The position numbers and the translations under genes were made by a program. Source: a virus (Duplodnaviria; Caudoviricetes). Taken from it: DNA of 64,000 bases. Below, in pieces: positions 4,745-31,626 of this stretch. Positions within the stretch are counted from its first letter, which is position 1. Each line of letters opens with the position of its first letter. The stretch spans positions 82,459-146,458 of IMG/VR virus record IMGVR_UViG_3300021387_000648. One strand, written 5' to 3'. The notes under the pieces are model-generated. The model made no database searches. It was not told the DNA's origin and saw only the letters and a program-made list of their open reading frames with translations.

Positions 4745-5878
4745 GTGGATGACATTGTAAAGAAATACCGCATGCGCCGAGATGCAAGGATTGCGGCCAA
4801 AAAAGCCCACGCGGACGACCAGTGGATCACAATGCGAGGAACGCATGTCCTGATAGACGGCGGCGGACAGGTATCAAAGGGACCTGAAAAGCTGAAAAAC
4901 GTTGTGAAGCAGGGCGGCGGGTACAAGTCAAAAGCTGACCGGAAGTACGGAAGCAGCGACAAATACAGCAAGGCGATGAATAACGGCTGGAATGTGAAAC
5001 CAGCCGTGGAACAGCCAAAAAGAGAACGAAGACCGCTTGCAGACATACACAAAGAGTTTGAAGACAACAGGTACCGTCTGGAAGACTCTTTGAAGAAACG
5101 CGACAAGGCCAAAGAAAACTATGAGATGAGCAAGGGCAATTACGATTTGTACATGGATGATCCGGGAACGTCTGAAGAGTTCAAAGAGATGTTCCGGAAA
5201 GACCTTGCCATGACTCAGAAAAAATATCAGGAAGCAAAGAGCGAAGTAGACCGGCTTTCGGAGAAAGACAGAGCCTTGAAAAAAGAACTGTCTGAAGAGC
5301 GCGACGCGGTCAAGAAAGAAGACCAAGCGGCAATCAGGTCCGGTCCTGTGGCATACGTCAGGTCTGAAAAAGTCGTTACGGCGATTCGTGGCAACGAGAG
5401 CTTGATCAGAAAGAAAGATTACGAAAAAGGAGCTTGCGTGGACAAAAACGGCAGGCTCTTGTTTGAGGCAACTGACGGCAAAGCGAGTCAGATCGACCTT
5501 GAAGCGTATAAGGACAAACTGAAAGACTCCGTGTTCACACATAACCATCCCCGGGGTTCAACACTCAGCGTGGATGACGTCAGCTGTGCCGTCGCTCATG
5601 GAATGGCGGAAGTAAGGGCTTGTCATCGAGGCGGTACATACTCTCTCGTCAGGCAGTATTCGCTTGATGGCGAAAAGCCTGCAAATTACATGGACTTCGC
5701 TTGGGACTATCAGGAAAGCGTCGCAAAGTATGACCGCGAAGTTATCGATCCGATCTGGAGACGTGGACCGCAGGTACAGGAAACTGCGGACAGGTGCAAT
5801 AAAATGTACGACGATTACCGCCGTCTGTGGCTGGAACTGAATTCGAAGAAATACGGATGGATTTATTCGGAGGAGTAG
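4745..5878 (+). CDS. leader-bearing putative effector with C-terminal JAB/MPN-like domain
   Basis: YRMRRDARI...HAD-DQWITMRGTHVLID leader, coiled coil, THNHPRGSTLSVDD (HxHP-S-D) motif. Confidence 0.65.
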   Translation: MDDIVKKYRMRRDARIAAKKAHADDQWITMRGTHVLIDGGGQVSKGPEKLKNVVKQGGGYKSKADRKYGSSDKYSKAMNNGWNVKPAVEQPKRERRPLADIHKEFEDNRYRLEDSLKKRDKAKENYEMSKGNYDLYMDDPGTSEEFKEMFRKDLAMTQKKYQEAKSEVDRLSEKDRALKKELSEERDAVKKEDQAAIRSGPVAYVRSEKVVTAIRGNESLIRKKDYEKGACVDKNGRLLFEATDGKASQIDLEAYKDKLKDSVFTHNHPRGSTLSVDDVSCAVAHGMAEVRACHRGGTYSLVRQYSLDGEKPANYMDFAWDYQESVAKYDREVIDPIWRRGPQVQETADRCNKMYDDYRRLWLELNSKKYGWIYSEE

Positions 5879-5882
5879 GATC

Positions 5883-6020
5883 ATGAAATACACAAGGGAA
5901 GAACTGCAAAAAGGGGTCACGGTACTTGATAAGTCCGAGAAAGACTGCATTTATCGGGTCCCGACTCCTGAGAAGAAAAAACAACCGGAGAAGAAGACAG
6001 GCCGACCGGAAAGGACGTGA
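5883..6020 (+). CDS. small hypothetical protein (45 aa)
   Basis: ATG just after the upstream stop with GGAGGAG RBS. Confidence 0.45.
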   Translation: MKYTREELQKGVTVLDKSEKDCIYRVPTPEKKKQPEKKTGRPERT

Positions 6021-6024
6021 CAGC

Positions 6025-6201
6025 ATGGGACAGGCGAAACCGAAGATGGACGGGATTAAGGACAAGTACCTCAATATCATCGAACATGTCTACGGCATTC
6101 CAAGGATCTTGCTGGAAGACATGACCTATGACAAGATCGATGACTATGTCTACAACGAACTGCAAAGGCGCGAAAGAGAAAAAGAATCCACCAAGAAATG
6201 A
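6025..6201 (+). CDS. small hypothetical protein (58 aa)
   Basis: ATG 6025 within track ORF 5926..6201, AAGGA RBS. Confidence 0.5.
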   Translation: MGQAKPKMDGIKDKYLNIIEHVYGIPRILLEDMTYDKIDDYVYNELQRREREKESTKK

Positions 6202-6303: not shown

Positions 6304-6960
6304 ATGAACATCGTAAAATCTGCAATTGTCATTGAAGACGGTCCGGACTACCAAGAACTGCTCCAGAAGATCGAGCGGATCGGACGGACCTGCTACAAGA
6401 GCGAAGACAAAATCGGCATTGGGAGTGCCGAGAAATTTGTCAACCGCCTGATTGCGTCCGGTCACGAGTCGGTCATCGAACACGGAAGCATCACGGTGAG
6501 GGTGATCTGTGACCGTGGAGTCAGTCACGAGATCGTCCGGCACAGGCTGGCAAGCTACAGCCAGGAAAGTTCAAGATACTGCAACTACACGGCGGATAAG
6601 TTCGGGAACGAGATTACCGTCATTGATATAGCCACAGGTTTTCAATATGACCTGTCAAGTGAAAAAGACATCAAGAAATACCAGATCTGGACCCAAGCAA
6701 TGCTGGACGCGGAGAAGCACTACTTTGAGATGATCGAAGCCGGTGCCAAGCCGGAAGAGGCAAGAAGCGTGCTTCCAAACTCCACAAAGACAGAGATCGT
6801 CATGACGATGAATCTCAGAGAGTGGAGACACTACTTCCGGATGAGATGCAGCAGCAGGGCCCATCCGCAGATTATCGAAGTCAGCAAAATGATTCTCAAG
6901 GTATTTGCGGAACGCTATCCTGCATTCTTTAGAGACCTTGCGCAGGAATACTCCGCCTGA
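6304..6960 (+). CDS. thyX: flavin-dependent thymidylate synthase
   Basis: GHESVIEH, RHRLASYSQESSRY ThyX motif, EEARSVLPN, MNLREWRH. Confidence 0.95.
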   Translation: MNIVKSAIVIEDGPDYQELLQKIERIGRTCYKSEDKIGIGSAEKFVNRLIASGHESVIEHGSITVRVICDRGVSHEIVRHRLASYSQESSRYCNYTADKFGNEITVIDIATGFQYDLSSEKDIKKYQIWTQAMLDAEKHYFEMIEAGAKPEEARSVLPNSTKTEIVMTMNLREWRHYFRMRCSSRAHPQIIEVSKMILKVFAERYPAFFRDLAQEYSA

Positions 6961-6984: not shown

Positions 6985-8187
6985 GTGACAAAGATGGAGA
7001 GACATGTAGCAGCCTACAAGAGGCGCAGAGCACAAAGGCTCTGTGAGCGATACGGAGTCAGATATGACTCGTCGAATTTAGATTCAGGACTTGGCTGGCT
7101 GTTTGGTCTTGCCACGGATCTTGGAATCAAGACAAAGGGTATGGAGATTCCTGAAATCTTCAAGGCTGTGAATGAGAAGCGTGCCCAGAAAGGGCTTGAA
7201 CCTGTTGGACACAAGGGAAATGTTTCCGGAAAGAAGGGCTCATTCAAGCAGACAAGCCGGAAGGGGCCGGAGGTAAACAAGTCCCTCGTGTCCAATGCAA
7301 AGGAGGAAGCCAAAAAGAATATGGCGACCTCCTACAAAACTGCGAGCGGAGCTAATTTCCCAAAGCCAAAGGCTGGCGCGAAGTTTGACAACAGTGTTAT
7401 GTCCGGCGTTGAAAAGAGCGCAAAGGAACTCGGAAAAGAAAAGGAATTTGACGACATCGTGAAGAGCCTGAAACCGACCGATTATGTCTATATGAAAGAC
7501 CCCGTGACGGGTGATCAGGTTGCTTCCGTTCCTGGCTTGGCTCAGCGTTTCGATAAGACAATGACCGGGCGGTCAGAAGAGTGCCAGAGGATCTACGACC
7601 AGAAAATCAAGAAGGGCGCACAGATCTCGAAAGACATGATTGATGCAGTCAACGGAATCGGGTGCCGTCTGTCCGGACTGGAGAACTGCTTCAAGGGCGG
7701 CGACTCCACGTCAAGGAAGATTTCTACCAAACGCAGCGAGGCAGAAGCAAGAGGAAAAGAAACCAAGACGGACGAAGGATACACTGCTGGTTTTGGTGAT
7801 ATCATCCGATTCACGGCCTTGTGTGACCACGATGACATCGCAGAAACGGTGACAAAGCTGGAAAGCGCTATGCAGAAGAAGGGCTATGAGCTCAACGAAA
7901 GAGACAATAAGTGGGTGACCGGAGACGGCAGCTACAAAGGCGTGCATGTTGAATTCATTTCTCCGACTGGCGAGCGCTTTGAGGTTCAGGTACATTCTAC
8001 TGTCGCTCTGGCATTCAAAAACAAGGGTCACAGATACTATGACAATGCACGCGTAGAAGACGTGAGCACTGCGAAGGGCAAGAAGCGCCACGATGCCGCC
8101 ATTGAGAAATGCAAGAGCATCTGGAAGACTTGCCCGATCCCCAAAGGAATTGAGGACCTGAAACCGATCCCAAAAAAGAAACGGTAG
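6985..8187 (+). CDS. leader-bearing RelA/SpoT-type small alarmone synthetase (toxSAS-like)
   Basis: YKRRRAQRL...RYDS leader; DIIRFT, YKGVH, FEVQVH synthetase motifs. Confidence 0.8.
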   Translation: MTKMERHVAAYKRRRAQRLCERYGVRYDSSNLDSGLGWLFGLATDLGIKTKGMEIPEIFKAVNEKRAQKGLEPVGHKGNVSGKKGSFKQTSRKGPEVNKSLVSNAKEEAKKNMATSYKTASGANFPKPKAGAKFDNSVMSGVEKSAKELGKEKEFDDIVKSLKPTDYVYMKDPVTGDQVASVPGLAQRFDKTMTGRSEECQRIYDQKIKKGAQISKDMIDAVNGIGCRLSGLENCFKGGDSTSRKISTKRSEAEARGKETKTDEGYTAGFGDIIRFTALCDHDDIAETVTKLESAMQKKGYELNERDNKWVTGDGSYKGVHVEFISPTGERFEVQVHSTVALAFKNKGHRYYDNARVEDVSTAKGKKRHDAAIEKCKSIWKTCPIPKGIEDLKPIPKKKR

Positions 8188-8201: not shown

Positions 8202-8230
8202 TTGACAATGTACTAAAATTAGTGTATAAT
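8202..8230 (+). promoter_or_regulatory. consensus sigma-A promoter with palindromic spacer
   Basis: TTGACA-atgtactaaaattagtg(17)-TATAAT. Confidence 0.9.
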
Positions 8231-8251
8231 GACCATGGAGGTGAGCGGGCT

Positions 8252-8500
8252 TTGAGTGTGAGAAAAGAAGTGTTCTATTATCAGGATCGCGATGACGATT
8301 CAGGGATTGCTCGTTCGGTTCGTGATGAGACCGGGACTGACTATCAGTTCTGGAACTATGAGAAGCACGACTGGGTATCTCCGAAAGATTCGATTGCGAT
8401 GGACTTCTGCCATGACTACGACAACACGCGCGTGATCAGTGAGGAGGAGGCAAAAAAGGCAATCGAAGAGGCTGAAAAGGAGATTGAAAGCCGAAAGTAA
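8252..8500 (+). CDS. small acidic protein, putative immunity protein of the synthetase
   Basis: GGAGGTG RBS, TTG start; lies between the synthetase and the HD hydrolase; ends ISEEEAKKAI. Confidence 0.6.
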   Translation: MSVRKEVFYYQDRDDDSGIARSVRDETGTDYQFWNYEKHDWVSPKDSIAMDFCHDYDNTRVISEEEAKKAIEEAEKEIESRK

Positions 8501-8512
8501 GGGGATGGTAGC

Positions 8513-8932
8513 TTGATTTCGATGGTCTGGCAGGCAGAGGCCTTTGCAAAGGAAAGGCACTTTGGACAGTTTGACCGCGCCGGAGTTCCGTATATCGAGC
8601 ATCCGCGTGCGGTTGCGGCGAAGGTGGACACGGATACGGAAAAGGTTGTCGCGTTCCTGCATGACACGGTGGAGGACACCAACACAACGCTGGACGAGAT
8701 CCGGAACAAGTTTGGCACTGAGGTCGCGGACGCGGTTGAATGCCTGACTCACAAAAAGGGTGTTCCGTATATGGAATACGTCAAGGGAATCAAAACGAAC
8801 GACCTTGCGCGGAGGGTGAAGCTGGCGGACCTGAGCCATAACATGGATCTGAGCCGTCTGCCAAAGGTGACCGATGCAGACCTGAAGCGCGTGGAGAAAT
8901 ACAAGGCTGCTTACGACTTTCTGGTCGAGTAA
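8513..8932 (+). CDS. HD-domain small alarmone hydrolase (SpoT/Mesh1-like)
   Basis: H.GQ.DRAG.PYIEHP, LHDTVEDT, VKLADLSHNMD. Confidence 0.9.
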   Translation: MISMVWQAEAFAKERHFGQFDRAGVPYIEHPRAVAAKVDTDTEKVVAFLHDTVEDTNTTLDEIRNKFGTEVADAVECLTHKKGVPYMEYVKGIKTNDLARRVKLADLSHNMDLSRLPKVTDADLKRVEKYKAAYDFLVE

Positions 8933-9027: not shown

Positions 9028-10743
9028 ATGGAAAAGAGCCGAGCGAAAGCGATTGCGGACTACCGCAGGAGAAGAATACAACGGCTGAGAGCCAGATTCG
9101 ACGATGATAACGACGAGAACAATGCCCCGGCACCGGCTGGCGGGCATGGAAATACAAAACTTCCGTTCGGACTTTGCCGGAGGGAAGGCATCAAGGTAGA
9201 CCCGACTTGGACCCCGAAGGATGCGTGGAACGCTCTGGAAGGCAAGGGATACTCTGCCAAGGAAGCATATAAAGAACTGAAGGAAACCGGCAAGGTGGCA
9301 CCGAAGGCACCGCAGAAGCCTGCGAGGACGCCTGCTGAGATCAAGAAGATGGGCAAGTCCGTTTCCGACCTGAAGAAGGCTATAAAGAAGCGTGACAAGC
9401 TTGAAAAAGAACTGGATACGGCCAACATCGAGATTTCGAGAGCGATTAACACCAAAGCGAGGTATGAGTCCGCGTCCGAAAAGTACAAGAAGATGGCCGA
9501 CGAGATGGTCCAAAAGTACGGTTCCGAAGAAAACATTCCGTCCAAAAGAGAGGGAGAATACGGCTATCCTCCTTTGGCGAGCTATCAACTGTATCGTGAC
9601 AACGAGAGAAGCTATGCCAAGGACGCCGAGAACATCGGAAAGACGATCCCGGACCTGATGCAGAAGCACGAAGACCTTCAGAAACAGTTGGCTGAGTATC
9701 CGAGCAAAGAAGATCACAAGAAACAGTATGATCAGGCGGTTGACGACCTGCTGTCCAGTTCTCCGTACACCGACAAGGTACGCGACTATAGAACAATCGA
9801 GGAAGAGTCTGAGGGCGCGAGGGAGATTCTGGAAAATGCAAAGAAGAATGTCGAATATGCCCAATCGCATATCGAGTTCTATGAATCGATGGCCCGGAGA
9901 GCAAGAGAACGTGGAGACGAGGAAACCGCGAAGTTCTATGAGGGCAACGGTCTTGCTGCCAACAGAAAGCTTCTCGAAGTCAATCAGGCCAATGTCGACA
10001 AGTACTCCAAGCAGGTCGAGGACTATGACAGACGGATGAACGAGGCAAAGGGCGACGCTGCGGACAAGGACTGGAAGCAGATTTATGAGCTTTCGGTCGA
10101 GAAAGACACCGTGCAGGATGGACCATATACCGAGCTTGAAAGAGCGGCTGAATCTCTGTCAAGGGAAAAGGTCAAATACGTTAATCCGGTCAAGTATATG
10201 ACTCCGCCGTCAGAGGAGAAGATCATCTTCGACCTGCGCGGCAGTGACAAGACAAGCGGCTCCTGCGCTTCTCTGGCGTTTGCCTATTTCGTAAACAAGT
10301 CCGGATACAGGGTGCTTGACTTCCGTGGCGGAGCATCACGACGGTTCTTCTCGTATAACTGCGGTGATGTGATCCGGAGACTTGGCGGAACGGTCACACA
10401 CGACAGCGACGGCTTCAAAATCGCAAACGACCATCTTTCGCAGGTGGAAGAGGGCAAGGAGTACTATTTCGCGGCAGGAAAGCATGCTGCGGTTGTCAGA
10501 AAGAAAAACGGAAAGCTTGAGTTCCTCGAACTGCAAGACAGAACTGGCGGATGGGAAGAGCTCAATGACTCCGTTCTCAAACAGCGGTTCAAGGTCAAAA
10601 GGACCAGCCGTCGCGGCAGTGAGTATTCGTATCTGATCAGCGGAGACAAGCTGACCGGAAACAAAGAGCTTATTTCCCTGACGGGATATATCAATACGGC
10701 ATCGGACAAGCAGAAGAAAGGCGCTGGGGGTGGTATCAAGTGA
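9028..10743 (+). CDS. leader-bearing putative effector with C-terminal papain-like (Cys-His-Gln) domain
   Basis: YRRRRIQRLRARFDDD + GHGNTKLPFGLC module, long coiled coil, GSCASLAFAY / GKHAAVV / LELQ. Confidence 0.65.
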   Translation: MEKSRAKAIADYRRRRIQRLRARFDDDNDENNAPAPAGGHGNTKLPFGLCRREGIKVDPTWTPKDAWNALEGKGYSAKEAYKELKETGKVAPKAPQKPARTPAEIKKMGKSVSDLKKAIKKRDKLEKELDTANIEISRAINTKARYESASEKYKKMADEMVQKYGSEENIPSKREGEYGYPPLASYQLYRDNERSYAKDAENIGKTIPDLMQKHEDLQKQLAEYPSKEDHKKQYDQAVDDLLSSSPYTDKVRDYRTIEEESEGAREILENAKKNVEYAQSHIEFYESMARRARERGDEETAKFYEGNGLAANRKLLEVNQANVDKYSKQVEDYDRRMNEAKGDAADKDWKQIYELSVEKDTVQDGPYTELERAAESLSREKVKYVNPVKYMTPPSEEKIIFDLRGSDKTSGSCASLAFAYFVNKSGYRVLDFRGGASRRFFSYNCGDVIRRLGGTVTHDSDGFKIANDHLSQVEEGKEYYFAAGKHAAVVRKKNGKLEFLELQDRTGGWEELNDSVLKQRFKVKRTSRRGSEYSYLISGDKLTGNKELISLTGYINTASDKQKKGAGGGIK

Positions 10744-11021
10744 AGCGGATCTATAAGGAGAACAAGGACGACAAGGTTTGGTGGCTGGACAATGAGAAAG
10801 CGATTGGAGAATTCGCCTTTACGCTTGACAAGAAAACGTTCTACAATCTGTTCGCGGACTATCCGGACAAACTGTCCGTGCAGGACTGGATCACGTTCAA
10901 TGAGGAGAATGAGTATTGGGTGAAGTTCTTCAAAGAGAGGAACGAGGACTATGTGATGAAGCACGCCGAAGAGCTTGAGAAGCTTGGGCGTGAAGACCTG
11001 ATCAGGGCAATCATGAGCTGA
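10740..11021 (+). CDS. small protein, putative immunity partner
   Basis: GTGA overlap with the upstream stop; 93 aa; acidic and aromatic-rich. Confidence 0.6.
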   Translation: MKRIYKENKDDKVWWLDNEKAIGEFAFTLDKKTFYNLFADYPDKLSVQDWITFNEENEYWVKFFKERNEDYVMKHAEELEKLGREDLIRAIMS

Positions 11022-11068
11022 GCGGGGTATCCGGCAGCAAAGAAGAGGGAGAATTAAATACGTATCTT

Positions 11069-11097
11069 AGACGTCACTGAAAGGTGGCGTCTTTTTT
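11069..11097 (+). terminator. intrinsic terminator
   Basis: AGACGTCACT-GAA-AGGTGGCGTCT plus T tract. Confidence 0.75.
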
Positions 11098-11119
11098 ATA
11101 TCCAGGAGGAGCAAATAAA

Positions 11120-11836
11120 ATGCCGAGGAAAAAAACCGAGACCGCACCGGTTGCTGAGGCAAAAAAGAAAAAACCGAGTACGGCAAGTAAAACCACAAGA
11201 TCCCGAGAAAGCAAGGAGAAGACCACCGCGACAAAGAAGACGACCGCCCAGAAGAAGCCGAGGACCAAAAAGGATCAGGCTCCCAAGGAGCAGAAAATTG
11301 AGGTTGTCGAGGGCGAAGTTGTACAGAAAAAAGCACCCAAGAAAAAGGGCGTAGGAGGAAATAACAATTTAGTTCCATTTTCGCAACGAACAGAGGACGA
11401 ACAGAGAAAAATTGCTACAATGGGCGGTATTGCATCGGGAGAGGCAAGACGCAAGAAAAAGAACCTCAGAGAATTCGGAAGAGACTTCCTGATGCAGGCG
11501 ACATCACCGGTCTTTCAAAGTCTGATGGAGACCCACCAAGTCGAGCAGGATGACATGACAAATGCTGCGGCTCTGTTCGTAAGGCTGTTCAACAAGGCGA
11601 TGAGCACAGGGGACCTGAATGCCGCGCGGCAGGTTGTCGAATGGGCAGGAATGGCACCGCTTCAGGAAATGAGGGAGAATGAGGCGGTCGCGAGAATGTC
11701 ACAGGTGATCCAGCTTGCTCAGGGTGATACAGAAGATGAAGAAGAGGAAACGAGCGATGTGATCATCTATCTTCCGGACAATGGAATAAAAGTCGGAAGC
11801 CCGGAGGACTACGGACTGAACCTCACCGAGGAGTGA
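11120..11836 (+). CDS. terS: terminase small subunit (probable)
   Basis: NLVPF...IATMGGIASGEARRKKK motif; directly upstream of TerL. Confidence 0.7.
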   Translation: MPRKKTETAPVAEAKKKKPSTASKTTRSRESKEKTTATKKTTAQKKPRTKKDQAPKEQKIEVVEGEVVQKKAPKKKGVGGNNNLVPFSQRTEDEQRKIATMGGIASGEARRKKKNLREFGRDFLMQATSPVFQSLMETHQVEQDDMTNAAALFVRLFNKAMSTGDLNAARQVVEWAGMAPLQEMRENEAVARMSQVIQLAQGDTEDEEEETSDVIIYLPDNGIKVGSPEDYGLNLTEE

Positions 11837-11842
11837 TGACCG

Positions 11843-22503: not shown

Positions 22504-22762
22504 AGAGGACTACTTCAAGCCGCACATGTGCCCGGTATGCGGAAAGTTCGAGTTTCCGACACACGGGTCCTACGAGATCTGCGAGGAATGCGGATGGGAA
22601 GACGACGGAATGCAGGAGACCGATCCTGAGGCCGGTGGTGCCAACTGGGAAGGACTGGCAGGGTACAGAGCGCTGTATCAGGCCGGGAAACATAATCTGC
22701 CTACTGCCGAGAGACGGGAATGGCTGATCGAAAACGGGTATCTCCAATCAAAGAATAGCTGA
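22493..22762 (+). CDS. CPCC-type cysteine-rich protein, putative immunity protein
   Basis: CPVCG...YEICEECGWEDDG.Q...GGAN. Confidence 0.8.
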   Translation: MIDREDYFKPHMCPVCGKFEFPTHGSYEICEECGWEDDGMQETDPEAGGANWEGLAGYRALYQAGKHNLPTAERREWLIENGYLQSKNS

Positions 22763-22788
22763 CCTGCCACGTGTAGGAACAGTTTCTG

Positions 22789-22824
22789 AAGACGTTTCGC
22801 AAGAGCGAGGCGTCTTTTGCTTTT
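22789..22824 (+). terminator. intrinsic terminator
   Basis: AAGACGTTTCGC-AAGA-GCGAGGCGTCTT plus T tract. Confidence 0.7.
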
Positions 22825-23645: not shown

Positions 23646-24587
23646 ATGGACGAGAAGCCCGTAAGGGGTATAGATGTACTCCGAAGAAAAAGAGTTCGAA
23701 ACGGACAGATAAGAGAGCACGGCGAAATTTCACCAAGGCGGAGACCGACCTATCCGATCTCCGCCGAGCGTGAATGCATGCGCGGCACTCTGGCCTATAC
23801 AGAGATGGTGATTCAGACGGTGCAGCCCGCGATCAACAGCGTGATGCGGCAGTACGTGGAGCGCGGCGAGGTACGGCAGGACGCGACCGGAGAGTTTATT
23901 TCAACCGCGAGAGGACTTCGCTTGGCGGCGGCTGAAAGGCTGGACCGTAAAAAAGGCGCTCTGGCAAAGCTTGAAAGGCAGTATGCCAGAAGCGGAAGCC
24001 TTGCCAAAAACCACTCGATCGAAGACTGGAATGATCAGGTCCGTGATGCCCTTGGCTTTGAGATCAACGTCAAGAGCTATCAAGAGGATATGGAAAGCAT
24101 GGTCCAGCGCTGGATTCACGAAAACGTGAGCAAGATCCAGTCGATTCCGAACGAGTACCTTGCCGAGGTCGAGTCGATTATCCGGTGGGGCTACGAAACC
24201 AAACAGCCGAAGGTCAACGTCTACCGGAGACTGGAAAAACTGATCGGCCTGACAAAGTCCAAAGCAATGATGATTGCAAGGGACCAGTTGGGAACACTCA
24301 ATTGCCAGATGACGAGATACGAGCACGAAAGCGCTGGCGTCGGCAAGTATAAGTGGATCACCAAGCGTGACAGTCGAGTAAGAGACAGCCACAGGGCCTT
24401 GCATGGAACGGTCCACAAGTGGAGCGAGCCGCCTGCCGAGTGGTACATGACGAAATCAAGAGGGATTGTGTACACTGGAAGATACTGCCACCCGGGCGAA
24501 AGCTACGGCTGTCGCTGCGTAGCGTCGCCGGTATTTGATATAGACATTGCAAAACGCTATCTGGCGAACAAGTTTAAGCCTTTGTAG
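23646..24587 (+). CDS. phage head morphogenesis protein (MuF/SPP1 gp7 family)
   Basis: IARDQ, YKWITKRDSRVRDSH, HPGESYGCRC. Confidence 0.92.
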   Translation: MDEKPVRGIDVLRRKRVRNGQIREHGEISPRRRPTYPISAERECMRGTLAYTEMVIQTVQPAINSVMRQYVERGEVRQDATGEFISTARGLRLAAAERLDRKKGALAKLERQYARSGSLAKNHSIEDWNDQVRDALGFEINVKSYQEDMESMVQRWIHENVSKIQSIPNEYLAEVESIIRWGYETKQPKVNVYRRLEKLIGLTKSKAMMIARDQLGTLNCQMTRYEHESAGVGKYKWITKRDSRVRDSHRALHGTVHKWSEPPAEWYMTKSRGIVYTGRYCHPGESYGCRCVASPVFDIDIAKRYLANKFKPL

Positions 24588-24600: not shown

Positions 24601-24629
24601 TTGACACTGTACTAATATTAGTGTATAAT
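24601..24629 (+). promoter_or_regulatory. consensus sigma-A promoter with palindromic spacer
   Basis: TTGACA-ctgtactaatattagtg(17)-TATAAT. Confidence 0.9.
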
Positions 24630-24645
24630 AAAGGTGGTCGGAGAG

Positions 24646-26268
24646 ATGGACAATTCCGTTAATCGATATAGGAACCGCAGAAAAACGAGAGTTGCCGGAA
24701 GACGGAAGGCAAGGCTTGACAGCGTGGAGGCCTACAGACAGCGCAGAGAGCAGAGGCTTCAGGAACGCTTTGACGCGAGTGCGCGTCTGGCCTACGGAAT
24801 TGCAAAGAGCATGGGAATCAAGACCGAGGGCATGGAGCCCAAAGAGGTCTGGGCCGCGATCAAGAAGAAAGATCCCGGCGCTGCTGAGGCGGCTGCAAAA
24901 AGCTTCGGCAACAGAGGACCGAAAGGCAATGTGACCGGAAAAAGCGGTGAGCGCAGCAAGCAGACTTCCCGTGCGAAGTATCAGGGGAACTGGATGCCGC
25001 CAAAGGTCAAGGGCCTTGATGCCGCGACGGTGAACAACACGCTTTCCGGCTGCGACAAGGTCGGCGGACAGCACTATGCCAAGGGCACCAAGGTCGCCAA
25101 TGAGAAGCCGACGCTGAGAACCTTTACCACGCATGGTATGGATCACATCCAGCAGGTGGTCGAGAAGACCAATCAGGCTGCGGACGTGATTGAGCAGCTT
25201 CAGGGAAATCACCGTTTTCGCGGTGCCAAGATGGACCGGAAACTGATGCTTGTGTCTGCTTGGTTTCATGACACCGGCATGGACGGCGGCGACATCAATT
25301 GGAGCAAAGACAACGGAGACGGTATCCGTGGCAATCACGGAATGAATTCCGCGATGCATATTCTTGAGCACTCTGCGGAACTTCAAAAGCTTGGCGTTAA
25401 TCCGAGTCAGGCCGCGTTTATTGCCTTTGCCCACACGAAGAGTAAATCCGGAGTCAATGACCTGATGAGTCCGGAAGACTGGAAGGTTGGTCTGGACAAG
25501 ATCGAAACCGCCGTTAACGAGTATAATGAGCGGAACCCGAATAAGAAAATCAAGTTTGACCGCGACTCTGTGTTCGGCGGGGAACCGAACGAAGAGAACA
25601 TCCGCCACATGGCTTCGCAGGTTGCGGCGGTACGTCTTGGAGACGCCAACAGAGAAGCCAACATTCCACTTCGGGCCCAGAGCGGCGGTAAGTACGACAT
25701 CGACAAGATGGCAACGCCGGATCAGTGCGGGTCTTGGCAGGATGAGGTCAACAACTCCAAGATCAGCATCAAGGACGACAACGGCGTGCATGACCTGAAT
25801 GACGACAAGGACGGGTTCATCGGAGAGCTCGGACAGGAGAGCCGAGACTTTTCCAAAAAGGTTGTTCTTGGTGAGCGGAATATGGTCAAGGTTGACACGG
25901 TCCTGCATAACGGCAGTCTTGCTTTGAGCGTGTCGCTCCGAGGCGGAAACGATGTTCCGCACTGCACGGTGGAGGCGCTTCTGGAACGCTGCGGCGAACT
26001 GAATACCATCAACGGTATTCCGAGAAGCATGCAGATCAAGATGACCGGAGTCAAGAGCGCGAATGACATGAATCCGAACGCCACGGGAGCCTATGACGAC
26101 ATGTGGAAACGGATTGAGACCGAGGTTGACAAGAAGACCGGAAAGCCGAAGTACGGCGGCATTGACGCCCTGACGCTTGTTTGCGAAGACGGCACGAAGA
26201 TTGAGTACAAGAGAGAACCGAACGGCGGAAACAACAGAGAATGGAACAACGGAGGGAACAGCAAATGA
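24646..26268 (+). CDS. leader-bearing putative effector with HD phosphohydrolase domain
   Basis: Tandem leader YRNRRKTRV..RLDS / YRQRREQRL..RFDAS; FTTHGMDH...WFHDTGM...H...RLGD. Confidence 0.7.
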   Translation: MDNSVNRYRNRRKTRVAGRRKARLDSVEAYRQRREQRLQERFDASARLAYGIAKSMGIKTEGMEPKEVWAAIKKKDPGAAEAAAKSFGNRGPKGNVTGKSGERSKQTSRAKYQGNWMPPKVKGLDAATVNNTLSGCDKVGGQHYAKGTKVANEKPTLRTFTTHGMDHIQQVVEKTNQAADVIEQLQGNHRFRGAKMDRKLMLVSAWFHDTGMDGGDINWSKDNGDGIRGNHGMNSAMHILEHSAELQKLGVNPSQAAFIAFAHTKSKSGVNDLMSPEDWKVGLDKIETAVNEYNERNPNKKIKFDRDSVFGGEPNEENIRHMASQVAAVRLGDANREANIPLRAQSGGKYDIDKMATPDQCGSWQDEVNNSKISIKDDNGVHDLNDDKDGFIGELGQESRDFSKKVVLGERNMVKVDTVLHNGSLALSVSLRGGNDVPHCTVEALLERCGELNTINGIPRSMQIKMTGVKSANDMNPNATGAYDDMWKRIETEVDKKTGKPKYGGIDALTLVCEDGTKIEYKREPNGGNNREWNNGGNSK

Positions 26269-26660
26269 AGTATGTCGGCAAGAGCGTGATTCGCGGCGAT
26301 GTGGTCAGTTACAAGTTTGCGGCTGACGAGATGAAGACGGAAAAGGACTGCTTCCGGTTCGCGGCTGTGGCCTGCGGCTACGGCGAGCTTGAGATCGTCG
26401 AGTGCCGTGGCTACTCGGACATGGACACCCACGAGAACTATTGCAGCTTCAAAACGCAGAAAGAGTTCGTGGGTGGCCTTGACAAGGTCAAGAAGATCGA
26501 TGCTGATGTGATTGAAGTCCGCACGAAGGTTGACGGGTCCCGCGTGACCATCTCGATCACTCCGTGCTGGGATAACGAAGCAGGAAACACGGTTAACGTT
26601 TCCGGACCGGAGGAAGCGGTTAAGAAAGTAGCCGCCATGATCCAGAAGAAAAACGGCTGA
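26265..26660 (+). CDS. hypothetical protein, putative immunity partner
   Basis: ATGA overlap with the upstream stop, GGAGG RBS. Confidence 0.65.
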   Translation: MKYVGKSVIRGDVVSYKFAADEMKTEKDCFRFAAVACGYGELEIVECRGYSDMDTHENYCSFKTQKEFVGGLDKVKKIDADVIEVRTKVDGSRVTISITPCWDNEAGNTVNVSGPEEAVKKVAAMIQKKNG

Positions 26661-26683
26661 TACATCAATCGGAGGTAGAAAAC

Positions 26684-26893
26684 ATGATTGGTCCGTCCCC
26701 TGAGTTCACAAGCAGCAAGTACTTTGTCGCAGATCCCGAGTGGCACATGCTTCCGGGTGCTTCCGACAAGGACAAGAAGGAACTGGAAGAGTTCATGAAC
26801 GGCGGCGGTTATCCGAACATCTGGAAGTCGGAGAACCCGAAAATGAAGAAGCCCTACTACACATGGTCGGGTAAGATCGTCGATAAAGGTTAA
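26684..26893 (+). CDS. small hypothetical protein
   Basis: GGAGG RBS, 69 aa. Confidence 0.65.
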   Translation: MIGPSPEFTSSKYFVADPEWHMLPGASDKDKKELEEFMNGGGYPNIWKSENPKMKKPYYTWSGKIVDKG

Positions 26894-26898
26894 TAAAC

Positions 26899-26927
26899 AA
26901 AGCGTTGCTGACGGGCAGCGCTTTTTT
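26899..26927 (+). terminator. intrinsic terminator
   Basis: AAAGCGTTGC-TGACGG-GCAGCGCTTT plus T tract. Confidence 0.75.
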
Positions 26928-26950: not shown

Positions 26951-29900
26951 TTGCATAAGATCGGCTACATCACTGCAGAGCTGAGCCTGCTGTGCCAAGA
27001 GTATAAGACCGCTGAGGAGCCGAAGGCGTCCAAGTTGGGCGAGGAGATCCGGAAACTGGTAGAGTCCCTGACAGAGAGCTTTGATCAGGTTCGTAATGAC
27101 GGCGTGTTTTTCGCAGGTGACTTGGACGACCATCACCACGAATACGAAACCATCTATCCGGGCGATGAGCGCAAAGAGCACGATGACGCAGATTCCAGTG
27201 AATATGACTGGGTCACGATCAAAGGTACGCACGTTCCCCTTGATGATGAGGGAAACATGACCGGCGAGGTTGCCAAAAAGATCAAGGCTACCTCAAAGGG
27301 ACCGGCCAAAGCAGGACAGCGCGAACTGAATCTGAGCGACAGCACAAAGCCTAAGAGAACCGACTATGACTTGGACCCGGCAGACGGGCACCAAGAGTTC
27401 ATAAGCAAGAATGTGGACAAGCTCATGCCCATCTTTGAAGAGAAGGGCATGGACGGCGTGAAAGAAGAATGGCTCAAGGCCAGACTTCAAAACGCGACCG
27501 GAAACCTCCGACGCATCAGTGATCAGGAAACCGACGAGATCCTGCAAAACGGCATTGACAAAGGTGTCGCCAGCATGTGGATCACCGAGTATGATCCGGG
27601 CGTCAAGGAAAAGCTTGCACATCAGCTGACCAAAAACAGCGAGATACATAACGCGGCATTGAACGTTATGTATAAGAACTATCAATACCACTGCAAAGCG
27701 CAGGGCGAAGAGGATCTGCCGTTTGAAGACTTCCTCGTTACACCGGTTAAGATGTATAGAGGCGGAAGCGGCAAGGAGCACAAGAAGGCCCTTGCGTTTT
27801 CTTCTTATACGTTTGACAGAGCAGCTGCGGAAAAGTTCAAAGCCAGCAACGAAGGCCACGGAAGAGCCACTGACGACGGCGTGATTTACGAGGCGGAGAT
27901 CCGCCCGATTGACACCTTCGGCTCTTTGAACACGAGCGGCGAGATGGAGATTTTTGTCCCCGGCTTTATTGCACCGAACGGAAGATTCGATGCGGACGAA
28001 GAGTCGGAAGGTGATTCCTCATCCAAAAACCACGGCAACACCAAACTGCCTTATGGCCTGTGCAGGAAGTACGGCATTGAGGTGCAAAACGGCTGGACCC
28101 CGAGGGAAGCGTGGGAAGCGCTGGAAGGGAAAGGCGTGAGCGCTGCTGAGGAATACAAGAAACTCCGCGAGCGTGGGAAAGCAGAACAAAAAACTGTCGT
28201 TTCCCCGGAAAGACACACTGCTGCGAAGAAGTCCTGCATAGAAAAGCAGACTGAAGTAGCCCAGCAGACGAAAGAGCTTAATCGAAAGATCATCGATGCG
28301 ACGAACCGCCGAATTGATACAGAGTTTGGTCCTTTGTCACGTGCCAAAAGTGAACTTCTCCAAGCCGAACGCGGTGCCGTTGAAGCGAAAAGGAGAAAAG
28401 ACCTGATCGCAGGCAGGACCAAAGAAGAGCTTGAATCGGAAGTGGATGCTCTGTATAAACGTGTTCGCGAGGCCCAAGAGCTTAATGAAAAGCTCTACGA
28501 CAGGCCGGAACGCGGAACACCGGAACGCGAGGCATGGAACGCATGGTGCGAGCAGCACGGCGGCAGAAGCGAGATTATCAAGAAAATCGACACTGAGCTC
28601 TTATCCAAGGACGGAGCTCTTGAAAAATACAACGCTCTGAGCAATATCCTCAATAACGACTACGACCGCTACGGTCCGGACGGCGGATATAAAGAGGCCA
28701 GCAGAAAAGTACGGGGCGTCAAGAAAAAGATTGCCGGGTACGAAAAAGAGGTTCAGGACGCAGAGGCCGAGGTTGAAGAATACAAACGGCAGATTGCGGA
28801 AGCGAAAGAAAGTCTGAAGCCTGTCCGGCAGGAATACTACGATTCCGTCACGGAAAGATTTCCAACATTCGACGACTGTAAGACGGTCGAAGATATCGCG
28901 GAGCGGCTTTCTGCTGAGGGTGCCTTTGACGGGGACGACATCGTGTGCGACTTTGGACACAAGGTGTCTCTGGATACCGCAAAGGCGACAGCGAAGTCCT
29001 TTGTAGACTATATCAATAAGGTGCCTTTCATGAAAGGGCACTGCGGGCGTCTTGTGATTGAAGACATGACAGCCGAGGACGCAGGCGTCTACGGCTACTC
29101 ACAGAGAGGCAAGGGCGTCCGCCTGAATAACCGGTTCTACGGAGACGAGCAGAAGTTTGAAGAGTCTTGGCAGCGGTGCATGACGGACAAGTTCCATCCG
29201 CCCGGACTCACAAAGGAAAGTGTTGTCCAGCATGAGTATTCTCATCAGTTGGACGACTACATGTCAGATGCCTTGAAGCTCCACAGCGGTAATTTTTCCA
29301 CGCTGGTGATGAACGAGGTTATGTCCAAGCTCGGAATGAGCAGGGACGAGTGCAAGAGAGCCGTGTCCGGATACTCCGTCAACAACAAAAGCGGCGGTGA
29401 CGTCGAGTGGTTTGCGGAAGCGATGTCCGAGTATACGGGCAGCGCGAATCCGAGACCGGTTGCAGTTGCGGTCGGCGAATGCGTTATGAAATACGCCCAG
29501 CAACTTCAGACGCAGCGTCATGACGCAGCTGATGACGATGGACGGTGGGTAACCACAGAAAACGACCATCATGTGCATATCAATGAGCAGGGAATCCCGG
29601 ACAAGGGAAATCCTTATGTGCTTTCCACCATGCGCGGCGAAGGTCCAAACCCGAAAAGCAGGGAAGAGCTTGTGAGGAACCGCCTGCGGAAAAGAAGCAG
29701 ACAGGTGAAAGCCCTATTCCAGAGCCTTGAAGATGCGGAATGTGACGAAGAAGCCGCATACGATGAGAGAAACAAGGCGGACAATGCCCTTCGCCGTTTG
29801 AATCTCCAAAGGAAGATCGTTGCGAACGACAAGAAGATGCTTGAAGACCTCGGCTATGGCGAAGGCGATAAAGAGGTCATGGAGAGAGACCTTGAAGAGC

Positions 29901-31306
29901 TCAAATCCGAAATGGACAGCATTCTTCAAGGCAGGAGCAAGTGGAGCCTCCAAGACGAAGAGAAAAAATCATTTACTGAAGTCGAAGCCAAGTACAATAA
30001 GCTTGACTTTGCGATCAAGTCTTATGACGAGTGCTACGGTCCGGATGCGTTCTCTGAGGAAAAGGTGAGTCAGGCGGAGGAACACGCCGCCAAGGCCAGA
30101 CAGAGGGCCCACGATGCAACCGTGAGACGAGAGAAGGCGCACAAGGAAGCACACGCGGTTTCCGGAAAACTGGATCAGGAGCGGTTTCTTACAAGTGATG
30201 AGAGGTCATCCGCGATTCAGGAGATCCAGCATTCGTCCACATGGGACGGAATGTCCGATGAGGCAAAGGCATCTGCGTTTGAAAGCCTGCAAGGGGCGTC
30301 TGATGCGCAGCTGCTTCTGTTGCAAAAGACAGCCGGTCATGTTAGAATCATGGACGGCGAAGGAAGGGTTTCTCCCTCCGGCGCTGATTCGTTCTATTCC
30401 AAAGGAACAGGGACGATCGTGATGTCGGCAGAGGACATGCGGAAGCCAAGTATCCTGTGGCATGAATACGGTCACTATCTGGATGACCCGGATCAGAGCG
30501 ACTGCTATTCGCACAAGAAAAGAAACTTGTCCAGCGATACGGAATACAGGTCGTCTCTGTCGCAGGCCTTGTATGATGGAAGCGCGATGCACAGCAAAGA
30601 ATCCGCAGCCGATATGAATAAGCTGCTGCGGGAGTCCGGCGTCGAAGACTACACAATCGAAGAGAGTCCTTACGGGCATTATCTGATTGTGAAGAATTCC
30701 GAAGGCGGGATGATAGAAGATGCCTACGACACGGCGTTCTTCAAGATTGCGTCTGCCGTGGACAGCCAGTTCAACAAGTTCCAGTTCGCTGACAGCGAGT
30801 ACGACGACTATCTGAGGTCGATCGGCTGTCCGCTTTCCAGCGAAGAGCCAAAGTATGGCGACTACATAGAGTTCTATTATACGCCGAAGCGGAGGCTTCT
30901 CCGGGAACGTGAGAAACACAAGGGCGCAAGAGAAGAGTACAATCGTCTGCATCGAGAATACAGAGAGAAGAGAGAAGCCGCGATTGCCAAGAACCCGGAC
31001 GAGTACTACGACAAAACCCGGGAATACGAGGAGCGGTGCAGGCAGCGCGAGAAAATGATCGGTCCGGTTTCGGATATCATTTGCGGTATGTTCAACGGAC
31101 GCGGACCTTGGGTTTGCGGCGGTCACAGTTCGGATTACTATTCCAGAAGCACGGCACCATACAGCGAGGCGGTAGCCAACTACCACCAGATGCGCATGAT
31201 GGGCTGGACCGAAGGACTCAATCTCCTGAAGTCTATTGCGCCGAGTGTCCACAACAGTCTTGAAAAAGCCTATGACGAATGGCTTTGGAGGAATGTAGAC
31301 CTATGA
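26951..31306 (+). CDS. polyvalent putative effector: ART-like domain plus two zincin domains
   Basis: Modules start after HDDAD/RFDAD/RHDAAD; MYRG..FSSYT..EMEI (R-S-E ART-like); HEYSH..EWFAEA; HEYGH..SEAVANY. Confidence 0.7.
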   Translation: MHKIGYITAELSLLCQEYKTAEEPKASKLGEEIRKLVESLTESFDQVRNDGVFFAGDLDDHHHEYETIYPGDERKEHDDADSSEYDWVTIKGTHVPLDDEGNMTGEVAKKIKATSKGPAKAGQRELNLSDSTKPKRTDYDLDPADGHQEFISKNVDKLMPIFEEKGMDGVKEEWLKARLQNATGNLRRISDQETDEILQNGIDKGVASMWITEYDPGVKEKLAHQLTKNSEIHNAALNVMYKNYQYHCKAQGEEDLPFEDFLVTPVKMYRGGSGKEHKKALAFSSYTFDRAAAEKFKASNEGHGRATDDGVIYEAEIRPIDTFGSLNTSGEMEIFVPGFIAPNGRFDADEESEGDSSSKNHGNTKLPYGLCRKYGIEVQNGWTPREAWEALEGKGVSAAEEYKKLRERGKAEQKTVVSPERHTAAKKSCIEKQTEVAQQTKELNRKIIDATNRRIDTEFGPLSRAKSELLQAERGAVEAKRRKDLIAGRTKEELESEVDALYKRVREAQELNEKLYDRPERGTPEREAWNAWCEQHGGRSEIIKKIDTELLSKDGALEKYNALSNILNNDYDRYGPDGGYKEASRKVRGVKKKIAGYEKEVQDAEAEVEEYKRQIAEAKESLKPVRQEYYDSVTERFPTFDDCKTVEDIAERLSAEGAFDGDDIVCDFGHKVSLDTAKATAKSFVDYINKVPFMKGHCGRLVIEDMTAEDAGVYGYSQRGKGVRLNNRFYGDEQKFEESWQRCMTDKFHPPGLTKESVVQHEYSHQLDDYMSDALKLHSGNFSTLVMNEVMSKLGMSRDECKRAVSGYSVNNKSGGDVEWFAEAMSEYTGSANPRPVAVAVGECVMKYAQQLQTQRHDAADDDGRWVTTENDHHVHINEQGIPDKGNPYVLSTMRGEGPNPKSREELVRNRLRKRSRQVKALFQSLEDAECDEEAAYDERNKADNALRRLNLQRKIVANDKKMLEDLGYGEGDKEVMERDLEELKSEMDSILQGRSKWSLQDEEKKSFTEVEAKYNKLDFAIKSYDECYGPDAFSEEKVSQAEEHAAKARQRAHDATVRREKAHKEAHAVSGKLDQERFLTSDERSSAIQEIQHSSTWDGMSDEAKASAFESLQGASDAQLLLLQKTAGHVRIMDGEGRVSPSGADSFYSKGTGTIVMSAEDMRKPSILWHEYGHYLDDPDQSDCYSHKKRNLSSDTEYRSSLSQALYDGSAMHSKESAADMNKLLRESGVEDYTIEESPYGHYLIVKNSEGGMIEDAYDTAFFKIASAVDSQFNKFQFADSEYDDYLRSIGCPLSSEEPKYGDYIEFYYTPKRRLLREREKHKGAREEYNRLHREYREKREAAIAKNPDEYYDKTREYEERCRQREKMIGPVSDIICGMFNGRGPWVCGGHSSDYYSRSTAPYSEAVANYHQMRMMGWTEGLNLLKSIAPSVHNSLEKAYDEWLWRNVDL

Positions 31307-31626
31307 TGACAGAACAGAACGAACTAATCAAGCTGTTGAATGACGGCTTCTTTAACGATGCTGAATTCTTCCAGAAAGCCTACATCGACAAAAAGGGCGT
31401 CATGGATATGGACGGCGTCACGAGGCTTTGGGAGTCTTTCCGTGGCAGAAAGTACACGATGAAGTACTATATGGTCCACGGGAACACGATCCCAACCTGG
31501 GGAGTACCAAGCAGGTACAGAGACCCCGACGAAGCAGAAAAGGTTTACAAAGCCTGCCTTGAAGAAGGCGTAACTTGGCAGGAGAAGCTTAACTACAAGC
31601 CTCCGAAGTCAAACGAGGTTTGGTAA
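31303..31626 (+). CDS. hypothetical protein, putative immunity partner
   Basis: ATGA overlap with the upstream stop, GGAGG RBS. Confidence 0.65.
   Translation: MMTEQNELIKLLNDGFFNDAEFFQKAYIDKKGVMDMDGVTRLWESFRGRKYTMKYYMVHGNTIPTWGVPSRYRDPDEAEKVYKACLEEGVTWQEKLNYKPPKSNEVW

Follow-up and report, generated by a model that had tools for sequence, protein, structure and literature searches.

A shared N-terminal tag on effector-type proteins in a phage head-assembly region, proposed to load them into the capsid

Why does the head-assembly region of a phage hold a row of enzyme-like proteins that begin alike and end differently? We addressed this question in a 146-kb phage, large and uncultured, that infects Clostridia of the gut or rumen and has an array of such genes in its head-assembly region, using a window of 64,000 nucleotides, the whole stretch of DNA that was analysed. 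The genome looks temperate, with two tyrosine recombinases, and a prophage relative lies in a 358-kb MAG contig. As the first-pass annotation had described, the effector-type genes are interleaved with those for terminase, portal and MuF:

4745-5878, + strand: effector 1 (377 aa); Arg helix, acidic stretch, WxTxxGxHV (4823), coiled coil, JAB-like C-terminus (from an HNHPRG..S..D motif only)
5926-6201, + strand: small ORF behind effector 1, not assigned to a family
6985-8187, + strand: effector 2 (400 aa); Arg helix, degenerate HGNT-like module, small alarmone synthetase domain (8vx3; phrog_7625 for the C-terminal part)
8202-8932, + strand: perfect promoter TTGACA-17-TATAAT (8202-8230), small ORF (8222-8500), HD_4 hydrolase (8513-8932)
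9028-10743, + strand: effector 3 (571 aa); Arg helix, HGNT domain, coiled coil, papain-like (Gln-deamidase-like) domain (phrog_7104, 5e-36)
10740-11092, + strand: DUF7675 small gene (10740-11021), which co-travels with the papain-like domain; terminator (11069-11092)
11084-13249, + strand: TerS-like gene and large terminase
13275-14873, + strand: effector 4 (519 aa); two Arg helices, HGNT domain, coiled coil, zincin HEYGH; terminator (14854-14873)
14906-18637, + strand: conserved member (1243 aa); Arg helix, HGNT domain, ten beta3-alpha repeats (aa 154-929), C-terminal domain (weak DUF3626 lead)
18661-19213, + strand: acidic 120-aa partner gene; terminator (19187-19213)
19308-21617, + strand: portal (Phage_portal_3) with C-terminal NUDIX fusion
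21630-22817, + strand: perfect promoter (21630-21658), p21682 (273 aa), CPCC zinc-ribbon gene (22451-22762), terminator (22788-22817)
22843-23625, + strand: member 6 (260 aa); Arg helix, HGNT domain, two beta3-alpha units; paralog of the N-terminal part of 14906
23646-24587, + strand: stand-alone MuF (313 aa)
24601-26924, + strand: cassette of effector 7; perfect promoter (24601-24629), effector, two small ORFs (26241-26660, 26684-26893), terminator (26899-26924)
24646-26268, + strand: effector 7; two Arg helices, degenerate HGNT-like module, HD-like (from motif only)
26951-31306, + strand: polyvalent protein (1451 aa); no Arg helix, alternative N-terminal domain
31279-31626, + strand: small partner gene of the 26951 C-terminal unit
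31745-34892, + strand: prohead protease-scaffold (DUF2213), cement protein, major capsid protein (phrog_530, 8.6e-72)

Nine copies of the arginine-rich motif Y[RK].RR..R[LIV] are present in the window, where codon shuffling predicts 0.06; every copy is on the + strand and 9-51 codons from the upstream stop. The copies are spread over seven ORFs (4745, 6985, 9028, 13227, 14906, 22843 and 24634), with the motif doubled in the two whose true starts lie at 13275 (ORF 13227) and 24646 (ORF 24634). HGNT[KR][LI]P[FY]GLC is found at five sites (9145, 13455, 15110, 22969 and 28031, the last internal to 26951), with a degenerate HGNT-like module in ORFs 6985 and 24646, and W[IV]T..H[VI] at three (4823 in effector 1; 27209 and 29546 in 26951), which confirms the leaders and modules of the first-pass annotation. 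The remaining 82 kb of the 146,458-bp genome contain no Arg, HGNT or WxT motif. Since third-codon identity at conserved residues of the tagged ORFs is merely 0.25-0.60, they are old paralogs under protein-level selection, not DNA repeats.

The tag consists of three parts. Specifically, an Arg-rich amphipathic helix of 20-25 residues, in one or two copies, occupies the very N-terminus, followed by an acidic [FLM]-D-A-D-D-E linker accompanied by a Gly-rich flexible stretch, and then by either the 45-residue three-helix HGNT domain (HGNT..PFGLC..W.P.DAW.AL) or a WxTxxGxHV module of about 30 residues; a coiled-coil spacer usually separates this junction module from the variable enzyme. Using an alignment of 26 sequences, AlphaFold2 predicts a helix at residues 2-24, a disordered acidic/Gly linker and the three-helix domain with a pLDDT of ~80-86, and the structural model of 22843 has a matching layout.

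A profile of the N-terminal module matches 473 metagenomic clusters (50% identity) at E<=1e-3, with no homologs in 50,697 GenBank phage records. The module lies no more than 140 residues from the N-terminus in 201 of 214 retrieved members, and the strict Arg motif precedes it in 134 of these 201. Behind the module, 192 proteins fall into at least 29 C-terminal clusters; the Pfam-positive domains in relatives are ADPrib_exo_Tox, Zeta_toxin, NUDIX and Methylase_S. Identical effector domain types are found behind HGNT as well as WxT, and the C-terminal domain of effector 1 reappears behind HGNT modules in P0038 and P0095. The portability claimed for the leader is thus borne out, both by the number of C-terminal clusters and by the swapping of effectors between HGNT and WxT.

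At E<=0.01, Pfam returns nothing for any of the eight window proteins, neither a MuF domain nor MPTase-PolyVal, ART-PolyVal, LPD or ArdC-N. The RelA/SpoT-type synthetase label of effector 2 stands, as residues 192-395 align at full length with PDB 8vx3 'SaSAS' (E 6.8e-8). With regard to a toxSAS or Apk2-Aph1-type assignment, we found a RelA/SpoT-type synthetase domain, an adjacent HD_4 gene and a small ORF, the latter two being candidate antidotes of effector 2; alarmone synthetase, small ORF and HD hydrolase travel together in six loci. The papain-like label of effector 3 is a good lead (Gln_amidase/SpvD/OspI clusters, score 0.95), and HExxH motifs together with phrog_7153 'zinc-finger protease' point to zincins in effector 4 and 26951. 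The JAB-like (4745), HD (24646) and ART-like (26951) labels are based on motifs only, and phmmer against the PDB gives no match for these three proteins. DUF3626 is a weak lead (0.90) for 14906. We dropped the nuclease identity of 22843, which is instead a paralog of 14906 residues 1-299 (E 1e-41) with two beta3-alpha units versus ten. As judged from sequence, 14906 and 22843, the two most conserved members, are repeat proteins and not obvious toxins; with no recognisable enzyme in either, they could be structural internal proteins. Protein 26951 holds three enzyme-like units (WxT with an ART-like domain; acidic motif, HGNT and zincin; acidic motif, WxT variant and a second metalloprotease-like unit), and each of the other seven holds one effector or none.

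Most effectors had been described as followed by a small gene and a terminator. The small ORF is present for six of the eight units, and a strong terminator ends four (11069, 14854, 19187 and 26899), a fifth (22788) closing the portal/p21682/CPCC unit. In diverged phages, each effector domain retains its own small downstream ORF even with a different carrier protein: the 31279-31626 partner follows the 26951-type C-terminal unit behind different carriers in six loci, and in at least ten the acidic 120-aa gene immediately follows the 14906 ortholog. The small downstream gene is probably an antidote that spares the producing cell. Three units have perfect sigma70-type promoters of their own and several end in terminators, which counts against packaging, as such units look like autonomous moron-style cassettes and not necessarily like late or structural genes.

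These boundaries, and partner genes conserved as in toxin-antitoxin (TA) systems, would also fit enzymes that stay unpackaged in the cytoplasm and were inserted by chance, with their antidotes, into the head operon as TA-like or moron cassettes. The N-terminus might then serve in nucleic-acid binding (an arginine-rich motif with a three-helix, HTH-like domain), autoinhibition or oligomerisation; the Arg helix is presumably similar to arginine-rich RNA-binding peptides, and the three-helix HGNT domain has no informative structural neighbour. We consider this account unlikely, however, because the tag is confined to head modules. The proposed co-occurrence of leader and head genes holds strictly across some 20 contigs and five genomes that are nearly complete. 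Across about 20 IMG/VR and MAG loci, tagged genes are always interspersed among TerL, portal, MuF, protease and MCP; MuF has tagged genes on its flanks in all relatives, and the 14906 ortholog sits between TerL and portal in nearly all. All matches fall within a single span of 9-27 kb in each of five genomes or records (146, 159, 101 and 89 kb, plus a 2.6-Mb MAG). Even in a distant lineage whose head genes differ (Terminase_3, T7-type portal), HGNT-like and WxT proteins are encoded immediately upstream of the terminase. Moreover, identical toxin classes are MuF- or portal-fused in other phages (PMC5576092, PMC11699363), and the Arg helix is missing exactly where cargo is portal-joined or internal in a polyprotein.

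The relatives show what such joining looks like. Their toxins are attached covalently to a portal-NUDIX protein, in which the Arg helix is absent; P0208, for example, consists of portal, NUDIX, acidic motif, HGNT and ART. These fusions, of NUDIX plus ART, Zeta or Ntox50, form 82 clusters of 1347-2212 aa, with WxT in 21, a GNFGHxGRPG junction in 29 and HGNT in one. The C-terminal domain of p21682 is likewise portal-fused elsewhere, and the C-termini of 6985, 9028 and 13227 match C-terminal parts of 'head morphogenesis' (MuF-fusion) PHROGs; MuF of the window is toxin-free, as first noted, having no toxin extension. WxT is a general junction module, also common inside portal fusions, and because it is frequent there, where docking is unnecessary, it serves in joining or processing and not as a docking signal. 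What appears to set the stand-alone proteins apart is the Arg helix combined with HGNT; the association of these two is partly circular, as the profile used to collect the stand-alone proteins itself contained HGNT.

Could the N-terminal elements of packaged proteins mainly be cut, autoprocessing or junction signals that release units inside the capsid, with targeting left to something else, such as coiled-coil spacers or effector domains? The acidic motif [FLMH]-D-A-D, accompanied by HGNT or WxT, recurs where units meet within 26951, within P0106 and within many portal fusions, the prohead protease gene lies next door, and portal-fused cargo would have to be freed before ejection. Nevertheless, we regard this as decidedly unlikely: the Arg helix occurs at none of seven internal HGNT junctions and is absent from portal fusions, which fits a once-per-polypeptide signal rather than a cut site, and HGNT is nearly missing from the portal fusions although processing would be equally needed there. 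Polymorphic toxins freed at lysis or induction for interbacterial competition, with the N-terminus as a trafficking or entry domain, would suit the temperate-looking genome, the relative in the MAG contig and a toxin-plus-immunity layout typical of polymorphic toxin systems (PMC3482391, PMC5576092), but are very improbable here, as the module, a basic helix joined to a small helical domain, has neither signal peptide nor hydrophobic segment, and the strict tie to head genes and portal fusions would be left unexplained.

The eight tagged or cargo-type proteins are best accommodated, with rather better than even confidence, by non-covalent capsid loading of injected effectors; prohead loading and injection are what we infer from the comparative evidence. 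The Arg helix, probably with the HGNT domain, would dock the protein non-covalently inside the assembling prohead, replacing the covalent portal or MuF fusion used by related phages. Candidate receptors are the portal or the strongly acidic scaffold part of the protease-scaffold protein, whose residues 200-400 have a net charge of -73 and whose gene adjoins the array. The prohead protease may, speculatively, later cut at the acidic junction. Against such a cut, solved homologs of the capsid protein do not conserve its N-terminal RFD-type motif, which leaves the proposed protease site unsupported. On infection, the proteins would leave the head together with the DNA and work in the new host cell, in takeover, anti-defence or exclusion of competitors. 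The more specific proposal, that Arg helix and HGNT form a transferable tag read by the acidic scaffold or the portal and load many enzymes, several copies each, without structural fusion, is plausible to us at somewhat below even chances. If true, such a tag would be to phages what cargo-loading peptides are to encapsulins, would add an unrelated second instance of the principle of the T4 capsid targeting sequence (CTS), and could be used for loading chosen proteins into phage heads.

We lean towards seeing the cargo system as a variant on the theme of MuF toxins, polyvalent proteins and the T4 CTS, in which what is new is most likely a shared N-terminal tag doing what other phages achieve by fusing toxins to head proteins. 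Packaging and cleavage have been shown for the T4 CTS on IPI-III and Alt (PMC3012670, PMC9958956). Both systems have a short N-terminal peptide common to unrelated proteins, a location among head genes and a prohead protease, and the role we propose from genes alone, prohead loading and injection, is the same. In contrast to T4, the tag here combines a 20-25-residue Arg helix with a folded 45-residue domain, the helix is followed by the conserved acidic [FLM]-D-A-D motif and no L/I-x-E cut site, and the protease family is DUF2213. The Dar system of phage P1 (DarA, Hdf, DarB, Ulx; PMC9024508, PMC12810830) also places several anti-defence proteins inside the head by a defined loading route, here only proposed, and ejects them with the DNA, but P1 loading needs specific helper proteins instead of a common sequence tag, and the two systems are unrelated in sequence. 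Encapsulin cargo-loading peptides (PMC8346489) are likewise short and transferable and dock diverse enzymes inside an HK97-fold shell, as proposed here; they generally sit at the C-terminus and attach to the shell protein, whereas our tag is N-terminal, has a candidate receptor only and would act in a DNA-filled phage head.

Polyvalent proteins (Iyer et al. 2017, PMC5512222), known from phages and conjugative elements and at times fused to portal or MuF, carry two to fifteen effector domains per polypeptide and are predicted to be delivered from the capsid with the DNA. Multiple effector domains recur in 26951 and in the giant portal-NUDIX-toxin fusions of relatives, whereas most members of the array have one effector each and a dedicated common N-terminal tag; the word 'leader' is absent from that paper, and its passages matched by a term search contain no such tag. 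The window zincins could be distant MPTases, and one relative contig has ArdC-N and MPTase-PolyVal in another gene. Temperate phages also encode MuF polymorphic toxins (Jamet et al. 2017, PMC5576092; for toxins of the Bxa and Apk2 types, PMC11699363), which have an N-terminal MuF domain (PF04233/PF06152 or MuF3/4) in the toxin polypeptide. They share C-terminal classes with the array (an alarmone synthetase accompanied by an HD hydrolase and a small immunity gene; glutamine deamidase; ART), as well as a position beside portal and terminase and a putative cognate small downstream gene per toxin. Unlike in these systems, MuF is a separate 313-aa gene here and the tag takes the place of the MuF domain at the N-terminus, with 7-8 tagged genes per genome compared with one MuF toxin.

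Nine copies of the Arg motif Y[RK]xRRxxR[LIV] occur in seven ORFs of the window, all on the + strand, against 0.06 expected from codon shuffles. Each copy lies 9-51 codons past the preceding stop, which confirms the claim of the first-pass annotation that seven genes begin with a common leader. HGNT[KR][LI]P[FY]GLC is found in five ORFs and W[IV]T..H[VI] at three positions, and a search of the other 82 kb of the genome for the Arg, HGNT and WxT motifs returned nothing similar. Third-codon identity is 0.25-0.60 at the residues conserved across the five HGNT modules, indicating that the paralogs are old and maintained by selection at the protein level. This low synonymous-site identity rules out DNA-level repeats or gene conversion as the source of the common N-termini.

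From the N-terminus, the tag consists of an Arg helix in one or two copies, the acidic motif [FLM]-D-A-D-D-E, a flexible linker, and either an HGNT domain or a WxT (WxTxxGxHV) module, often followed by a coiled coil and then by the variable domain. When 26 modules drawn from the window and relatives are aligned, the core residues H-G-N-T, P, G-L-C, G-I, W, P, A-W, A-L, and G do not vary. On this alignment, AlphaFold2 predicts a helix at residues 2-24, then an acidic/Gly-rich linker that is disordered, then three helices forming a compact domain (residues 44-87; pLDDT about 80-86), and the full-length model of 22843 (array proteins are named by gene start) has the same layout. In more distant relatives the helix is altered ('R..MI.R.L.LDADEDE', 'EF.K.GLMDG.GESEE'), with the acidic end and the modules retained. 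Foldseek found no structural neighbour of the tag model in the PDB, and none of 50,697 GenBank phages matched the tag in a tblastn search. Behind the Arg motif lies an acidic stretch with no hydrophobic core, which ruled out a Tat or Sec signal.

We searched 1.84 billion representatives with a profile of the tag (A3), which identified 473 clusters at 50% identity. The module lies no more than 140 residues from the N-terminus in 201 of 214 retrieved members; the strict Arg motif stands upstream of it in 134 of those 201, versus 0 of 7 internal HGNT modules. The final 200 residues of the family proteins fall into at least 29 clusters, and one and the same effector domain can follow HGNT in one phage, follow WxT in a second, or form part of a polyprotein, in agreement with the proposal of a portable leader preceding diverse C-termini. 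Pfam families among these C-termini include ADP-ribosyltransferase toxin, Zeta toxin, NUDIX, and type I specificity domain, while the majority match no family, so that new enzymes for anti-defence or host takeover can be sought in this set.

The record of 146,458 bp is about 92% complete, and the window is its final 64 kb. The head module is encoded on the + strand, and the tagged genes lie among the following features:

455-3149: 12 tRNA genes (Met, Asp, Ser x2, Gln, Tyr, Glu x2, Ala, Asn, Trp, Gly), immediately ahead of the effector/head region
3284-4730 and 6304-6960: a tandem pair of ParB-like genes, with genes for a GNAT acetyltransferase and ThyX thymidylate synthase, amid the first tagged genes
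11084-13249, + strand: TerS-like gene and TerL
19308-21617, + strand: Phage_portal_3 portal with a C-terminal NUDIX domain fused
23646-24587, + strand: MuF, as a separate gene
31745-33316, + strand: DUF2213 protease-scaffold protein, a head maturation protease according to PHROGs (phrog_530, 8.6e-72)
head module, + strand: cement protein and DUF2184-type major capsid protein

The interleaving recurs in relatives. In about 20 IMG/VR and MAG loci, whose TerL and portal are 55-65% and 53-89% identical to those of the window, 3-8 tagged genes are always interleaved with the TerL, portal, MuF, protease, and capsid genes, with a 14906 ortholog between TerL and portal and with MuF flanked by tagged genes. 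In four further genomes or records every match is confined to one 9-15-kb span, and together these loci bear out the reported interleaving of the array with head genes. In a different lineage, with a Terminase_3 terminase and a T7-type portal, an HGNT-like protein and a WxT protein are encoded directly upstream of the terminase. ParB-like genes occupy the equivalent place in relatives.

The effector assignments of the first-pass annotation fared unevenly. Its RelA/SpoT-type synthetase stands, since the C-terminus of 6985 matches a small alarmone synthetase (PDB 8vx3, 6.8e-8). Searching the PDB by phmmer brought no useful match to the C-terminus of 4745, 9028, 14906, 24646, or 13275 (the true start of ORF 13227), nor to the ART-like unit of 26951. 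Three labels are tentative: the papain-like domain of 9028, a good lead, with Gln_amidase/SpvD/OspI papain-fold toxins as the closest Atlas clusters (0.95); the zincins of 13275 and 26951, which carry HExxH and match phrog_7153; and the DUF3626-like domain of 14906, a weak lead, which follows ten tandem beta3-alpha units. The JAB-like, HD-like, and ART-like labels derive from motifs, with no Pfam or PDB phmmer support; Pfam at E<=10 gave only noise for all eight proteins. We withdraw the 'nuclease-like' label of 22843, which is instead a paralog of 14906 with two beta3-alpha units; Foldseek with its model found nothing below 1e-3 in PDB or BFVD, and the best VIA-wide Z was 5.2. The C-termini of 6985, 9028, and 13275 also match C-terminal parts of 'head morphogenesis' PHROGs, which are MuF-toxin fusions. 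The 1451-aa protein 26951 has no Arg helix, and its internal unit boundaries carry the acidic motif plus WxT, HGNT, and WxT again.

Similar domains are also found fused to the portal itself. P0208, a 1620-aa ORF in a Clostridia MAG, joins portal, NUDIX, acidic motif, HGNT, and ART and has no Arg helix. Long portal homologs form 82 clusters (P0216-P0296, 1347-2212 aa) that combine portal and NUDIX with ART, Zeta toxin, or Ntox50 domains, indicating that phages of this group commonly attach these toxin classes covalently to the portal, which agrees with the head-packaged effectors proposed earlier (PMC5512222). Their internal junctions carry WxT in 21 clusters, GNFGHxGRPG in 29 (in fuller form, conserved as DGGPGSGNFGHxGRPGxxGGS), and HGNT in 1. 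HGNT is thus ruled out as a universal junction module (1/82), and WxT is a general junction element. Literature searches for the HGNTK, GNFGH, and NGTHV motifs found nothing relevant among the papers listed. The Arg helix and, almost always, HGNT are limited to proteins not covalently joined to a head protein, as expected if they supply attachment, a contrast that is fully independent on the portal side only, since the stand-alone set was gathered with an HGNT-containing profile. The C-terminal domain of p21682 (21682-22503) matches the C-terminus of a portal PHROG (phrog_15528), and in a Clostridia MAG prophage (L037, 4326-7103) a WxT module joins this domain to the end of a portal fusion. 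Around residue 85, p21682 has a degenerate WxT-like stretch of its own.

Each effector domain retains its own small downstream ORF across phages, even behind different carrier proteins:

14906 C-terminus: acidic 120-aa gene (10 loci or more)
final unit of 26951: gene 31279 (6 loci)
papain-like domain: DUF7675 gene
synthetase: HD hydrolase (6 loci)
24646: gene 26241

Behind 6985, a perfect promoter precedes a small ORF and the gene of an HD_4 hydrolase. The perfect TTGACA-17-TATAAT promoters are:

8202-8230: just past the 6985 stop, heading the candidate antidote pair
21630-21658: just past the portal stop, heading p21682 and CPCC
24601-24629: just past the MuF stop, heading the 24646 cassette

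In P0072, P0101, P0102, and P0069, tagged proteins of other phages, the DUF7675 ORF (10740) or the 69-aa small ORF 26684 is fused N-terminally, so not every small array gene need be an antidote. The possession of own perfect sigma70 promoters and terminators by several cassettes is what would be expected if they were toxin-antitoxin-like morons that are not packaged. They could be, but this reading leaves the strict head linkage and the fusion behaviour unexplained.

We favour packaging, and infer that the tagged proteins are produced together with the head proteins and would be docked inside the prohead by the Arg helix, probably with help from HGNT. Partner proteins would hold the effectors inactive in the producer cell, and the effectors would be delivered along with the DNA. 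The sequence data themselves establish the architecture, its conservation and context, the effector classes, the co-travelling partners, and the portal fusions, and the mechanism is reasoned from these. As receptor, the scaffold part of the protease-scaffold protein is plausible: its extremely acidic middle (residues 200-400) carries a net charge of -73, and its C-terminal end is basic. The portal is a second candidate. When the tag was modelled in complex with portal (1-500) and MuF, the prediction returned 'no answer' (score 0.00) and counts neither way. A further, speculative step is removal of the helix at the acidic junction by the prohead protease. The conserved N-terminal elements could instead be mainly processing signals, which fits WxT but not the Arg helix. 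Release of the toxins at lysis for competition between bacteria could also be imagined, but the tag has no feature that points to export or entry into cells.

To our knowledge, how phages select the proteins that enter the capsid is understood mechanistically in very few systems, namely the T4 CTS, P1 Dar, and covalent MuF/portal fusions. The T4 capsid targeting sequence is a parallel in logic, although the tag differs from it in sequence, length, and protease family. With MuF polymorphic toxins and phage polyvalent proteins, which it would resemble in its mode of action, the tagged set has its toxin repertoire and immunity layout in common (PMC5576092, PMC11699363, PMC5512222). However, the tagged proteins lack the defining MuF fusion, and most carry one effector each with a dedicated tag. 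Passages of MuF-toxin and polyvalent-protein papers retrieved by term searches mention no such tag; in Iyer 2017 the word 'leader' is absent, and the passages so retrieved contain no leader-type tag. Hundreds of metagenomic protein families bear this conserved tag, for which covalent fusion to the portal can substitute, and so an abundant phage group of gut and rumen Clostridia provides a candidate loading signal open to direct testing. Profile A3 provides a simple sequence handle for cataloguing putative injected effectors and their antidotes and, if the tag is sufficient for loading, chosen proteins could be packaged into phage heads.

Two head proteins have N-termini with features of their own. 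That of MuF (23646-23760) is also Arg-rich (e.g. LRRKRVR, PRRRP), is kept in relatives, and may make contacts of the type used by the cargo helix. That of the capsid protein (33855-34000) carries [RH]FDSAD near residue 33 in all close relatives and resembles the end of the cargo leader; we rejected it as the same protease site because solved homologs do not conserve it and there is no sign of cleavage. A single 2622-aa ORF (46263-54131) lies in the tail region, past the head module. The sources of related sequences are metagenomes and MAGs with Clostridia or Christensenellaceae labels, and one relative lies within a 358-kb contig and is thus probably a prophage. Two tyrosine recombinase genes outside the window, at 972-1418 (extreme left end of the record) and 27178-27762 of the full genome, suggest a temperate or plasmid-like lifestyle.
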